Source of the DNA: a virus
Taxonomy: Duplodnaviria; Heunggongvirae; Uroviricota; Caudoviricetes
Direction: 5' to 3' (one strand)
IMG/VR virus record: IMGVR_UViG_2681813320_000017
Length of the DNA stretch: 4,569 nucleotides
A program made the translations under genes and the position numbers. The notes beneath the pieces were generated by a model. The model saw nothing but the letters and a program-made list of their open reading frames with translations. It was not told where the DNA came from and ran no database searches. Within the stretch, counting starts at the first letter, position 1. The number at the start of each line of letters is the position of its first letter. Of this stretch, positions 482 through 4,197 are shown in pieces.

Positions 482-614
482 TTTTTGGGACTCCTGGCTG
501 ATTAAGTATGTCGATAAGGCGTTTCCATCCGTCACGTAATTTACGGGTGATTCGTTCAAGTAAAGATTCGGAAGGGCAGCCAGCAACAGGCCACCCTGCA
601 ATGGCATATTGCAT
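450..614 (-). CDS. cIII: CIII, FtsH protease inhibitor that stabilises CII (54 aa)
   Basis: Internal Met of the 450..674 track [57 protein letters not shown] matches recalled lambda CIII. ATG at 612-614 preceded by AAGGAG at about 6 nt spacing; stop TAA at 450-452. Confidence 0.85.
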   Translation of the reverse strand: MQYAIAGWPVAGCPSESLLERITRKLRDGWKRLIDILNQPGVPKNGSNTYGYPD

Positions 615-762
615 GGTGTGCTCCTTATTTATACATAACGAAAACGCCTCGAGTGAAGCGTTATTGGTATGCATATAAAAAGGCCCTCACACTGGAGGGC
701 AAAGAAGATTTCCAATAATCAGAACAAGTCGGCTCCTGTTTGGTTACGAGCGACATTGCTCC

Positions 763-2056: not shown

Positions 2057-2740
2057 TTAGGGGGTTGAGACTCCAGAGAGCAATCCGTAGATTTTATATA
2101 CAGCAAATGCTAATGCTGGCAAGCCAAGGGCCCATTTGATTATATCAAGCTTAACATCACTAAGCTTACCTTCTAACTTTGCCTCTTGAACAGAAAGAGC
2201 TGCATCGATCTTTTTTGATTGGGAGTCAAGGGCACTCTCAATTCTACTCGATTGTATGTCCAGACGACTGTTGATTTGTTCGTGCTGAGTAACAACTAAA
2301 TGCTTCATCTCCTTTATATCTGAAGCCATTAGTTCACGCCATTTGGCCATATCAGCCTGCATTTTTGAGGCCACTGCATCCACTTCAGCTTTATTTGCCT
2401 TCAGAAGTGCCTGTATTTCGTTTCTGCTCAAATCGGACATTGCGGTTCCCTGTATAGGAGTTTCCTCGTACGGTGGGATAACATTAGATTGTCCTTTACA
2501 ATCGGCAACCCCTCCTTTATCTACGATTGTAGCAGTTAGCTGGGAATTGGTCGCATCATCCACCATGTTTTTTGGTGAATAAGAGGAAATAGGCGTAGAA
2601 AACAGATTACCTTTTGCTGTTTCCATGAACATCATGAAATCGCGAGTATTAACGTTATTCAGGGAAACTTGCAGTGGTTTAACAATACTTGATGTTTTGT
2701 AAGTAATAGTTAAATCACCTACTTCTTCCGGTTGTTGCAT
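2057..2740 (-). CDS. Hypothetical membrane-anchored coiled-coil protein (227 aa); distal gene of the cassette at the rexAB position
   Basis: ATG at 2738-2740 overlaps the upstream gene's stop (TAATG, translational coupling); stop TAA at 2057-2059. Ser/Thr/Asn-rich N-terminal about 100 aa; central region with heptad-like charged/hydrophobic periodicity (EIQALLKANKAEVDAVASKMQADMAKWRELMA...IDAALSVQEAKLEGKLSDVKLD); single C-terminal hydrophobic helix IIKWALGLPALAFAVYKIYGLL. Not similar to lambda RexA or RexB. Confidence 0.75.
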   Translation of the reverse strand: MQQPEEVGDLTITYKTSSIVKPLQVSLNNVNTRDFMMFMETAKGNLFSTPISSYSPKNMVDDATNSQLTATIVDKGGVADCKGQSNVIPPYEETPIQGTAMSDLSRNEIQALLKANKAEVDAVASKMQADMAKWRELMASDIKEMKHLVVTQHEQINSRLDIQSSRIESALDSQSKKIDAALSVQEAKLEGKLSDVKLDIIKWALGLPALAFAVYKIYGLLSGVSTP

Positions 2741-3060
2741 TACGACTTCGCTCCATTAGAGTTTTGTGCCTCTAATTGTTCGAAAAGAAGAACTATATTC
2801 TCTTGAAGAGCCTTTAGTTGTGCCATTGGCATTATCACAGTGCATTGCTGATTGAGTTCATTTACAGAGCCTATCTGCATATTCGCTCTACCTGGTTGAT
2901 CTGGTATATCATTTTGGGATAGTACCGCAGGTATTGACTTGTTTGCGATAAAATGTATACAAATGAGATTTTTTTCCGCTCCCGGTAGTGGAGCAAAACT
3001 AGCGAAGTCCGCATAGGTTTCAATATAATCCACAGATGGTTTAATTTTGACCGGTTCCAT
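2740..3060 (-). CDS. Hypothetical small protein (about 106 aa); proximal gene of the cassette at the rexAB position
   Basis: Track ORF 2740..3075 begins with TTG (3073-3075) then ATG (3070-3072), neither with an SD. The ATG at 3058-3060 (MEPVKIKPSVDYIETY...) is preceded by GAGAGG, so I place the start there; alternative starts at 3072 or 3075. Stop TAA at 2740-2742 overlaps the ORF227 ATG. No recognisable domain. Confidence 0.65.
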   Translation of the reverse strand: MEPVKIKPSVDYIETYADFASFAPLPGAEKNLICIHFIANKSIPAVLSQNDIPDQPGRANMQIGSVNELNQQCTVIMPMAQLKALQENIVLLFEQLEAQNSNGAKS

Positions 3061-3077
3061 AACGCCTCTCATCAAAT

Positions 3078-3106
3078 ATTGTAGGTTTTTTAATTCAATG
3101 TGTTAA
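3078..3106 (-). promoter_or_regulatory. Candidate sigma70 promoter for the ORF111/ORF227 cassette, independent of cI
   Basis: Minus strand: -35 TTAACA (rc of 3101-3106), 17-nt spacer, -10 TACAAT (rc of 3078-3083), in an AT-rich 108-bp gap between the cI stop (3184) and ORF111. Predicted start site lies just upstream of the GAGAGG SD. Analogous in position to lambda pLIT. Confidence 0.3.
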
Positions 3107-3183
3107 ATGTTGGTGGTGTGTTATTTAAAGTTATTTTGACATCCTCCACGCCCTGAAGGACGGGGCTTGTCGCGTACTTGAAG

Positions 3184-3891
3184 TCACAAACTTTTCAGCC
3201 ACTCCCTTGCCTCGATGTCATCCAGATGACGAGATTGCTTCAGAATACCAGCCACATACTCCACCTTTGCTACTTGATGATAAGGTAACGTTATTGGCCT
3301 GTGGTCCTGGTTGATGCTTGTAAATTGGTATTCTCCATCTCTGTCATAGCCAAGAATCTTGATCATGTTGTGTCCTTCAACGGTTCTGACAAACACCTCA
3401 TCCCCCGGGAATACTTTGGTGTTAGGCTCAATGAGTACATATTCTCCTGATTTTATTCTGGGCCACATGCTGTCTCCTTTCACACGAAGACCAAAGGCAT
3501 CTGGATCATCACTATAAATCTTGAGCCACCCATCGCGCTCTTCGGTCATCTCGATGGCACCATCAACACCAAGAATTGCCTCACCAACCACGCGCACTAA
3601 CCCTTTTTTTAATTTGCCAACAAATGAAAGAGTATCTTCATCATTCGCTCCATTTAACGAAGTGCCGTGCTGAAGCCAAACAACATCAACGTTTAGAAAT
3701 TTCGCAAGCGCATTCATTTTTTCCTGACGCGGTAAAGACTCAGCATTAAACCATTTGCTAACGCCTTTGGACGAAAGAGAAAGGGCACGGGCTATGGCCA
3801 TACCCCTACCATGTTCATCAAGACCAGCTTCTTTACAGGCTTGCGCTAGCCGCTGGGCGAATTCTTTGCGCACTTTTTCATTCTGAACCAT
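3184..3891 (-). CDS. cI: CI-type prophage repressor, N-terminal HTH DNA-binding domain plus C-terminal LexA-like S24 autopeptidase domain (235 aa)
   Basis: ATG at 3889-3891, stop TGA at 3184-3186. HTH-like segment GMAIARALSLSSKGVSKWFNAE; catalytic Ser in GDSMWP (Ser141) and Lys in HNMIKIL (Lys178), with 37-residue Ser-Lys spacing as in LexA. Divergent from cro across a 78-bp operator region. No SD before the ATG, consistent with a lambda-like leaderless pRM transcript. Confidence 0.9.
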   Translation of the reverse strand: MVQNEKVRKEFAQRLAQACKEAGLDEHGRGMAIARALSLSSKGVSKWFNAESLPRQEKMNALAKFLNVDVVWLQHGTSLNGANDEDTLSFVGKLKKGLVRVVGEAILGVDGAIEMTEERDGWLKIYSDDPDAFGLRVKGDSMWPRIKSGEYVLIEPNTKVFPGDEVFVRTVEGHNMIKILGYDRDGEYQFTSINQDHRPITLPYHQVAKVEYVAGILKQSRHLDDIEAREWLKSL

Positions 3892-3969
3892 GAGTACGAT
3901 ACTAAAGCACTTGCAAAAACTTTCAGTTCAACCATAATGCGTACTAAAAGTACGAAAAGGGATATTCCT
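3892..3969. promoter_or_regulatory. OR region: pR promoter (-35 TTGCAA 3911-3916, 16-nt spacer, -10 CATAAT 3933-3938), operator palindrome CGTACT-AAA-AGTACG (3940-3954), and probable pRM on the minus strand
   Basis: Divergent intergenic region between cI and cro. Near-consensus rightward promoter. A perfect 6-bp inverted repeat with 3-bp spacer lies right at the predicted pR start site. Further GTACG half-site-like motifs at 3893-3898 (AGTACGATACT). Minus-strand TAGTAT shortly upstream of the cI ATG is a candidate pRM -10. Confidence 0.7.
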
Positions 3970-4197
3970 ATGCAAAATCTTGATGAGCCGATTAAAGGTG
4001 TCGGCATCCCTGAAGTTGCGAAGGCTTGTGGAGTTAGCGAAAGGGCTGTCTATAAGTGGCTCAAAAACGGCTTCCTCCCTAAGACTGAGTTTTTTGGGAA
4101 AACGAAATACGCCTCAAAAATCGAAGAGATTTCTGGTGGCAAATATCAAGCAAGCGAATTGCTTGAAATAAGCAAAAAGAACCTTCTGGCAGCATAA
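3970..4197 (+). CDS. cro: Cro-like repressor / HTH DNA-binding protein (75 aa)
   Basis: ATG at 3970-3972 preceded by AAGGG at about 8 nt; stop TAA at 4195-4197. HTH-like segment IPEVAKACGVSERAVYKWLKNG. The track ORF starts at ATG 3937, but that codon lies inside the pR -10 hexamer and has no SD. First rightward gene, divergent from cI. Confidence 0.8.
   Translation: MQNLDEPIKGVGIPEVAKACGVSERAVYKWLKNGFLPKTEFFGKTKYASKIEEISGGKYQASELLEISKKNLLAA

Follow-up and report, generated by a model that had tools for sequence, protein, structure and literature searches.

A predicted membrane-anchored stalk protein with a candidate nested start in the repressor operon of a lambdoid prophage

Does a prophage gene lying between the repressor and the early leftward promoter give rise to one protein or to two, and what might these be for? 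The question is raised by ORF227, an open reading frame (ORF) of 227 amino acids (positions 2057-2740, minus strand, with an ATG start and a TAA stop at 2057-2059) in a 4,569-nucleotide stretch of DNA from a tailed phage of the class Caudoviricetes (IMG/VR record IMGVR_UViG_2681813320_000017), referred to here in its entirety as the window. An initial annotation had drawn attention to an internal in-frame ATG at Met101 (2438-2440, minus), preceded by an AGGGAA resembling a Shine-Dalgarno (SD) sequence, from which a second product of 127 residues might be made; the coordinates and sequences that it gave for all of these are correct. We lean, with some reserve, towards a reading in which ORF227 is the membrane-anchored part of a two-gene cargo cassette, placed in the cI-to-pL slot and serving prophage exclusion or defence, with an ‘Esc-like’ headless isoform. 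The suggestion of two products, one of 227 and one of 127 residues (the latter being the predicted stalk-plus-anchor isoform, 2057-2440, minus), is made because a start codon and, in many lineages, a GGAGG are kept at the junction between linker and stalk, and because stand-alone genes for the stalk-anchor module, in some phages, begin at that very point.

That ORF227 is a real gene follows from its full-length homologues, which are 35-67% identical to it and occur in Klebsiella, Yersinia and others; a protein identical to it is found in RefSeq (WP_048970231.1), as a ‘CCDC90 family protein’ or a ‘hypothetical protein’. Throughout, L-numbers denote the homologous loci of the comparison and P-numbers the homologous proteins. 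Met101 is invariant in 17 full-length homologues, sitting at the border between a hypervariable linker and the conserved stalk, and the codon at this position is either ATG or GTG in all 31 of the distinct genes with DNA. Four lineages have valine here (L030/33/38; L032; L034/36/37; HK542) and all four use GTG, a codon that makes up 24% of the valine codons in those loci, such that a four-of-four outcome has a P of about 0.003; this test covers the valine lineages with DNA, with the valine proteins P0016, P0025 and P0028 falling outside it.

The SD sequence ahead of the internal start points the same way. In 10 genes of an 18-gene set it outdoes every other SD-like site of the ORF, with duplex energies of -10 to -12 kcal/mol, a level attained by only 0.5% of control in-frame positions (-10 kcal/mol or better); averaged over the 18 genes the energy is -7.8 kcal/mol, whereas control positions average -1.9 and other in-frame ATGs -1.8. 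Further cases of GGAGG, beyond this set, are seen in L020, L075, L032 and HK542, and the canonical motif precedes the internal start in at least eight lineages with an open upstream frame. Those frames are open for 46-119 codons upstream; each such part begins where the partner gene stops and is conserved within its own type, from which it follows that these parts are translated. The internal start lies 4-9 residues upstream of an invariant Glu in the family motif (MSREEL, MTISREEL, MSDLSRNE, MSDNFTKTE, MSDKNITKTE), and a distance that varies in this way is the behaviour of a start codon, unlike that of a fixed structural residue. Finally, in L024, L027, P0043, P0069, P0076 and P0084 the stalk-anchor module is a stand-alone gene that starts exactly at this Met; in L024 the upstream frame is closed by a TAG stop inside the SD itself (AAG TAG GAG GAG TAT ATG), where the fused relatives L003 and L025 read AAG GAG GAG. 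These comparisons make it probable that an initiation site at the linker/stalk junction is a conserved and selected feature of the family.

For the allele in the window, the internal start thus has strong family-wide comparative support, yet its own SD is weaker than had been claimed. The sequence before Met101 runs ...CTCCTATACAGGGAACCGCA, then ATG; the weak AGGGAA (2446-2451, minus) lies 5 nucleotides upstream, and its duplex with the anti-SD has an energy of -5.1 kcal/mol, a value reached by 11% of all positions in the window. It ranks 25th of 215 in-frame positions of ORF227, is the best among the nine internal Met codons, and is on a par with the real starts of the window (ORF227, -5.6; its upstream neighbour ORF106, -5.8; the cro-like gene, -5.1; cII, -3.3 kcal/mol). 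Around it, certain features are retained in the clade to which ORF227 belongs: each of the four lineages with DNA has GG at -10/-9; at -3 to Met101, 16 of 17 sequences have D, E or G (residues encoded by GRN), as against 22% elsewhere in the linker; and K or Q stands at -4 in 65% of the clade's sequences. We consider it likely, if only to a fair degree, that the Met101 start is used in this allele, and probably at a low level; the amount of short isoform is uncertain, since the SD is no more than a minimal AGG/GGA remnant.

What, then, would the two forms consist of? The N-terminal ‘head’ (residues 1-44; 2609-2740, minus) is moderately conserved, with 34% mean identity to homologues, and has no PDB or Pfam relatives by sequence. 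It is followed by the hypervariable linker (residues 45-100; 2441-2608, minus), with 12% mean identity and frame-keeping indels, against 72% mean identity for the stalk. In the single-sequence AlphaFold2 model, residues 1-101 are of low confidence, with a predicted local distance difference test score (pLDDT) below 50 for both head and linker, and residues 106-222 form one unbroken helix with a pLDDT above 90 for approximately residues 110-190. The family signature, MSDLSRNEIQALLKANKAEVDAVASKMQADMAKWRE (residues 101-136; 2333-2440, minus), is the sole segment common to all family heads and branches, being the 36 residues that follow the internal start (MSD..xE.QALLKANKAEVDAVA..M...MA.WRE); heads of several unrelated types precede it, and two different stalk and transmembrane halves come after it. 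That the first hundred residues might be a regulatory or sensor part had been proposed from ORF227 by itself, and the family bears this out in so far as the region is variable and swappable, as expected of a specificity or regulatory head.

The stalk proper (residues 106-199; 2144-2425, minus) had been described as a long amphipathic, heptad region ending in a hydrophobic helix. The helix and its ending hold: the tail, IIKWALGLPALAFAVYKIYGLL (residues 200-221; 2078-2143, minus), a putative membrane anchor that is nearly invariant among homologues, is the only hydrophobic segment of ORF227, with a best Kyte-Doolittle mean over 19 residues of 1.49 versus 0.39 for the next-best elsewhere. The heptad does not. 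The amphipathic period is 11/3, a hendecad (INSRLDIQSSR/IESALDSQSKK/IDAALSVQEAK/LEGKLSDVKLD), and in the periodicity test the power at 3.5 was nil and the observed value was reached in 62 of 2000 shuffles; a heptad coiled coil was therefore rejected. The tail of ORF227 contains two Lys and one Pro, and a simple Hessa sum comes to +4.5 kcal/mol. In a second branch of the family there are clear transmembrane helices (Kyte-Doolittle 2.1-2.7), followed by 28-37 Pro/Gln-rich residues, and we regard membrane anchoring as a trait of the family because the helices of this second branch are unambiguous. On these models ORF227 is predicted to be a membrane-anchored helical stalk.

The C-terminal module is itself a mosaic, as seen in L021, L024, L065 and others (proteins P0027-P0034, P0055 and P0079). 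One branch has the hendecad stalk and tail of the DUF1640 type; in the other, Gly-rich repeats of 7/11 residues (KIDGKLDSVEG..., ISGIQSGIS) come with a strong transmembrane helix and with an extracytoplasmic tail that is rich in Pro/Gln or of the form (AP)n.

A likeness of ORF227 to DUF1640 had been suggested in the initial annotation, and this was borne out by the profile searches. PF07798 (CCDC90-like/DUF1640) is the only consistent Pfam match of ORF227, aligning over residues 106-214 with 28.1 bits and E=2.1e-6, below the gathering threshold of 33.5 bits; 25 of 32 family members match the same profile (best E=7.3e-7), and none of the 32 meets the threshold. Given this steady sub-threshold similarity, the ORF227 family is a probable distant relative of DUF1640/CCDC90. 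DUF1640 proteins are membrane proteins of prokaryotes and organelles, in which a ‘beta-layer’ motif, [aliphatic]-A-T-K-[polar]-[DE], opens the C-terminal stalk (PMC4786415). The general plan (MCUR1, CCDC90B, the yeast homologues and prokaryotic membrane proteins) is that of a long coiled-coil stalk running into a C-terminal membrane segment, with a cap motif at the start of the stalk, and ORF227 has the helix of residues 106-222 ending in the marginally hydrophobic segment of residues 200-221. Directly before the helix, the phage family has a motif of the form (L/I/F)-(S/T)-(R/K)-x-E (variants L-S-R-N-E, F-T-K-T-E and I-S-K-E-E; in ORF227, L-S-R-N-E at 2417-2431, minus) which, compared by eye, resembles the beta-layer, with the Ala position missing. 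The phage family differs from DUF1640 in scoring below threshold and in its swappable heads, unrelated to one another, which take the place of profile positions 1-62, N-terminal to the stalk and unaligned in ORF227; the second phage branch has another stalk and transmembrane segment after the first 36 residues. PDB sequence searches with the family profile, the partner, the head and the C-terminal module gave nothing significant and recovered no DUF1640 structure. A nested start is not described for DUF1640 in the literature found. Separately, small mobilisable Col(156) plasmids of E. coli have been reported with an ‘orf2 (DUF1640 domain-containing protein)’ (PMC13516913).

ORF227 does not stand by itself. 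Immediately upstream lies a partner gene, ORF106 (2740-3060, minus; 106 residues from the PGAP start ATG at 3060, listed as ORF111 from a TTG at 3075), the TAA stop of which (2740-2742) overlaps the ATG of ORF227 as TAATG, so that the two genes are translationally coupled. ORF106 has few homologues and no match in Pfam, PHROG, NCBIfam, PADLOC or PDB, and its single-sequence AlphaFold2 model has a mean pLDDT of 47.6. The arrangement recurs in 29 distinct loci, in the order divergent cro-like gene, repressor, small partner, ORF227 homologue, terminator; the gene two positions upstream of the ORF227 homologue was a helix-turn-helix (HTH) repressor in seven of seven sampled, four with an S24 domain, and the synteny persists with repressors that are only 30-55% identical and with non-S24 repressors. 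In most loci the distance from partner stop to ORF227-homologue start is -17 to +14 nucleotides. The partners themselves belong to at least three unrelated families, none annotated: type A, of about 100 residues, present at 16 of 27 loci, that of the window among them; type B, of about 143 residues, always found with an ‘RLxVVGG’ head and including that of HK542; and a third with a Cys motif. Variable heads and partners upon a conserved module is the pattern of a conserved module with variable specificity parts.

The cassette is closed by an intrinsic terminator, ACCCGGCCTCAGTGCCGGGT + TTTCTTTG (2022-2051, minus). A terminator hairpin follows closely on the stop in 28 of 29 loci, mostly within about 30 nucleotides and at most 74, usually in the form AACCCGGCC-loop-GCCGGGTT plus a T-run. 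Near-identical hairpins are found in phages with highly diverged repressors and cargo (e.g. L065, L031, L018), and the hairpin may mark a preserved border between modules or a joint for recombination, by analogy with tIMM of lambda. At the other end, the spacers between repressor and partner are short. In the window, the one between cI and the partner gene contains an uncertain promoter-like site (TTAACA-17-TACAAT, a 10/12 match; 3078-3106, minus), and such sites occur in the corresponding spacers of 8 of 29 loci, which is about chance; a dedicated promoter, not being conserved elsewhere, was not relied upon. Short spacers without conserved promoter-like sites lead us to expect that, as a rule, repressor and cassette share a transcript and that the cassette is hence expressed in lysogens.

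A 31-bp stretch between cI and the partner gene (3135-3165) is 100% identical to a segment inside a ‘hypothetical protein’ gene in 44 Shiga toxin phages, including 933W (L0135), VT2-Sakai and Min27, in which the copy is far from the immunity region. In four loci an ORF of about 1000 residues lies downstream of the cassette (L014 6471-9632, L047, L029, L039); it was considered as a part of the system and rejected as a RecE-like exonuclease VIII. These ORFs encode 911-1095 residues, start with MEFFYVVKATQKSGK and carry PF06630 and a PDDEXK-like DUF3799 domain, and their hosts are Rac-type lambdoid prophages.

It is the position of the cassette that hints at its purpose. The window is the immunity region of a lambdoid prophage, with the order cro-like gene (divergent), cI, ORF106/111, ORF227, terminator and pL/N, and the RefSeq annotation of the identical prophage in E. 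coli PC-NDM34 reads exo, bet, gam, kil, cIII, N, cargo, cI, cro, cII, O, P, ren, nin. As this is the gene order of a lambda-like early region, ORF227 and its upstream neighbour fill the interval between cI and pL. In lambda, the same interval holds rexA-rexB, of which RexB is a polytopic membrane protein. The slot between cI and N is a known hotspot of mosaicism: its characterised occupants, rexAB and bstA, are abortive-infection systems made along with the repressor, and how active Rex is depends upon the RexA:RexB ratio (PMC8585504). Other cargo is carried there by phages that share the cI of the window.

Like rexAB and BstA of BTP1, the ORF227 cassette lies co-oriented downstream of the repressor, probably co-transcribed with it, and has a terminator before pL. 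A further likeness to rexAB is that two genes make up the unit, one for a soluble and the other for a membrane component, and the control by stoichiometry documented for Rex is akin to that which we propose below for ORF227. There are differences as well: ORF227 has a single C-terminal anchor after a long cytoplasmic stalk and no homology to the Rex proteins, the gene order is not the same, and here it is the membrane protein that has a head of its own and is coupled to a partner of about 100 residues. True, if distant, homologues are present in two sequenced lambdoid phages that have the immunity of lambda, HK542 and HK244 (the HK542_035 pair; JQ086373, EF120457), in which a two-gene cassette of 144/162 plus 206 residues replaces rexAB between cI and pL; in the second gene the signature segment recurs, ACGGAGGAAGAA stands ahead of an internal GTG, and there is a terminator. 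These differ from ORF227 in being about 30% identical over residues 81-217, in having a type B partner with an RLKVVGG-type head, and in belonging to the other stalk/transmembrane branch, with a strong transmembrane helix and a Pro/Gln-rich tail; they are annotated only as hypothetical.

For the second polypeptide, the closest dual-start precedent is sieB/esc of P22 and lambda, in which the in-frame internal product Esc inhibits SieB, and the antisense RNA sas switches translation (PMC3224144, PMC7067206). Like ORF227, this is a lambdoid prophage gene; it is expressed in lysogens and has a second polypeptide in the same frame from an internal start, as is predicted for ORF227, and by analogy the 127-residue form may be an Esc-like antagonist of full-length ORF227. 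Unlike ORF227, which lies in the repressor operon, sieB is part of the pL operon, and ORF227 shows neither a SieB-family match nor an antisense promoter above chance; the single sas-like candidate (2065-2093, plus), a 9/12 match, was at chance level and was rejected. The precedent fits better than those that had been suggested, the holin/antiholin pairs and GamL/GamS.

We propose the following model. A lysogen would make the 227-residue protein together with the 127-residue headless stalk-anchor, the short form probably being the minor one in this allele. Both would insert through the C-terminal tail with the stalk in the cytoplasm, and the stalk would oligomerise, probably as a trimer, as proposed for DUF1640 proteins; were it to do so, headless subunits would co-assemble with full-length ones. 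Such mixed oligomers might then set the number of heads per complex and so damp or gate activity, as Esc does for SieB and an excess of RexB for Rex. We further propose that specificity or sensing lies with head and partner, which would detect or bind some component of a superinfecting phage, upon which the membrane module would execute exclusion or abortive infection at the inner membrane. A bolder extension, which we put forward tentatively and regard as doubtful, is that the cassette represents a previously unrecognised family of anti-phage systems in the rexAB slot across Enterobacterales, in which heads and partners set specificity, the headless form is a built-in antagonist or means of self-immunity, and the head:stalk stoichiometry switches a membrane-directed abortive response.

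Several observations weigh against the reading that we favour. The SD of this allele is a minimal AGG/GGA match and by itself not above chance, and in ORF227's own clade the element has decayed (CAGGGAA, CAGGAT, CAGGAA, GTGGAA) to energies of -3.3 to -5.1 kcal/mol, of unexceptional rank. There is no dip in mRNA structure at the internal start (-4.5 versus -5.4 kcal/mol elsewhere, within one standard deviation), with 16 of 28 genes above their own median at this point. The lineages counted as independent share ancestry, and the internal start codon and its SD might be left over from a gene fusion and owe their preservation to recent common descent; equally, the Met or Val found here might act as a residue of the hydrophobic core. 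The tail in the ORF227 branch is only marginally hydrophobic for a transmembrane helix, and the oligomeric state is assumed by analogy with DUF1640. As to function, it is genomic position only that suggests a defence role: ORF227 shows no homology to RexA/B, SieB or BstA (no Rex, SieB or BstA family in Pfam, and no SieB family in PHROGs), and PADLOC-DB v2 gave no significant match for ORF227 or ORF106, the best for ORF227 having E=0.009 and 12.5 bits.

Some of these points suit an account in which the stalk-anchor was once a separate gene, to which heads were fused by loss of the upstream stop, so that only the 227-residue protein matters and Met101 is structural. Split and fused forms do indeed differ by one codon within the SD (L024 versus L003/L025), the SD in the clade of ORF227 has become unexceptional for an in-frame position, mRNA accessibility gives no signal, and Met and Val are both hydrophobic. 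A mere relic would sit uneasily with the persistence of GGAGG in at least eight separate lineages, within linkers that are hypervariable and open in frame, as it would with valine being always GTG and with a start that floats relative to the structural motif where a core residue would be fixed; even the clade with the weak SD still keeps the GG at -10/-9 and a GRN codon at -3. We therefore think this account unlikely, whilst giving it more weight than the other alternatives. Less probable again is a non-defence role in lysogenic conversion or regulation, with the cassette acting as a membrane scaffold, like MCUR1/CCDC90B, that modulates host physiology or the maintenance and induction of the prophage; the internal start may be used all the same. 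Here one may point to DUF1640/CCDC90 as the only detectable relationship, the eukaryotic members of which are described as scaffold factors (PMC7519068), to the lack of any significant match to known defence models, and to the diversity of cargo in the cI-to-N slot. Against this, the characterised occupants that the literature consulted names for the slot, rexAB and bstA, both act against phages, an arms race would be expected to leave just such variable heads and partners upon a conserved module, and the family is thinly and unevenly spread among prophages (57 clusters among 1.84 billion representatives; 40 of the 5426 E. coli genomes).

The remaining alternative is the one first raised for this gene, namely a holin-like or XhlA-like membrane disruptor, the long and short forms of which would time lysis as a holin/antiholin pair. 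It has in its favour the single C-terminal hydrophobic helix after a long amphipathic one, the two potential in-frame starts, and the dual in-frame start of the lambda S gene (S105/S107), from which two membrane proteins are made, the one antagonising the other (S and S'; PMC3224144). The hydrophobic segment of ORF227 is marginal, however, and its starts are 100 codons apart, not two, so that a whole domain would be removed in the short form, unlike in S105/S107. The gene is found in the repressor operon between cI and pL, with its own terminator, and not in a lysis cassette, such that expression is expected in lysogens and not late; and no holin or XhlA match was obtained at E<=0.1 in any of Pfam, PHROGs and NCBIfam. 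A holin/antiholin role is contradicted both by where the gene lies and by this lack of family matches, and we consider it very improbable.

Returning to the cassette as a candidate exclusion system, its distribution is sparse. The clusters counted above are defined at 50% identity; the 40 complete E. coli genomes carry proteins that are all at least 99.7% identical, with no diverged alleles among them, and the family was not found in 50,697 deposited phage genomes save for the distant homologues in HK542 and HK244. The carriers of this near-clonal allele are E. coli from humans, pigs, mink and chicken meat, and several strain names suggest carbapenemase producers (e.g. SUISSEKPC3NDM5, PC-NDM34).

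The remainder of the window reads as follows. The cI-type repressor (3184-3891, minus; HTH and Peptidase_S24 domains) is the first gene of the cassette-bearing operon; its start codon (3891, minus) lacks an SD (+0.6 kcal/mol), which would fit a pRM transcript that has no leader, like that of lambda. Divergent from it are the cro-like gene (3970-4197, plus), with a pR-like promoter match at 3911-3938 (plus), and cII (4336 onward, plus). On the far side of the cassette lie the antiterminator N (1334-1606, minus; PF25694, E=1.6e-31) and, between N and cIII, an ORF of 156 residues and unknown function (805-1275, minus; phrog_1636). Other phages with the same flanks have Ral and DUF2528 at this position (L001), and phage 1H12 (L077 1615-2196) has a plus-strand gene annotated ‘superinfection exclusion; inhibits SieB’, such that the N-to-cIII position looks like a second slot for variable cargo. 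Further along, the Rfam element Lambda_thermo (RF01804, the cIII thermoregulator RNA) matches at 569-627 (minus) with 88.5 bits and E=2e-21, overlapping the 5' end of a lambda-like cIII ORF (MQYAIAGWPVAG...).

We found no publication characterising the cassette or its nested start, the literature found to mention DUF1640 being concerned with mitochondria, coiled-coil theory and bare annotations; PADLOC, NCBIfam and PHROGs likewise offer no functional annotation, phrog_14825 being of ‘unknown function’. The locus is a new variation on three familiar kinds: a cargo in the slot of rexAB, a stalk-anchor resembling DUF1640, and what would be an exclusion gene with a nested start in the manner of sieB/esc. 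The cassette occupies a classic slot for prophage defence, with no function assigned to it in the libraries searched, HK542 and HK244 included, and the signature of its nested start is unusually clean, with ATG or GTG only, GGAGG in an open frame, and split-gene variants. Should no phenotype emerge, the locus would still be a tidy case of modular gene fusion at a translational-coupling junction. If the reading that we favour is true, one gene yields both an effector or scaffold and its own truncated modulator, and the system would offer tractable bacterial genetics for the DUF1640/CCDC90 stalk-anchor, the role of which is debated even in mitochondria.

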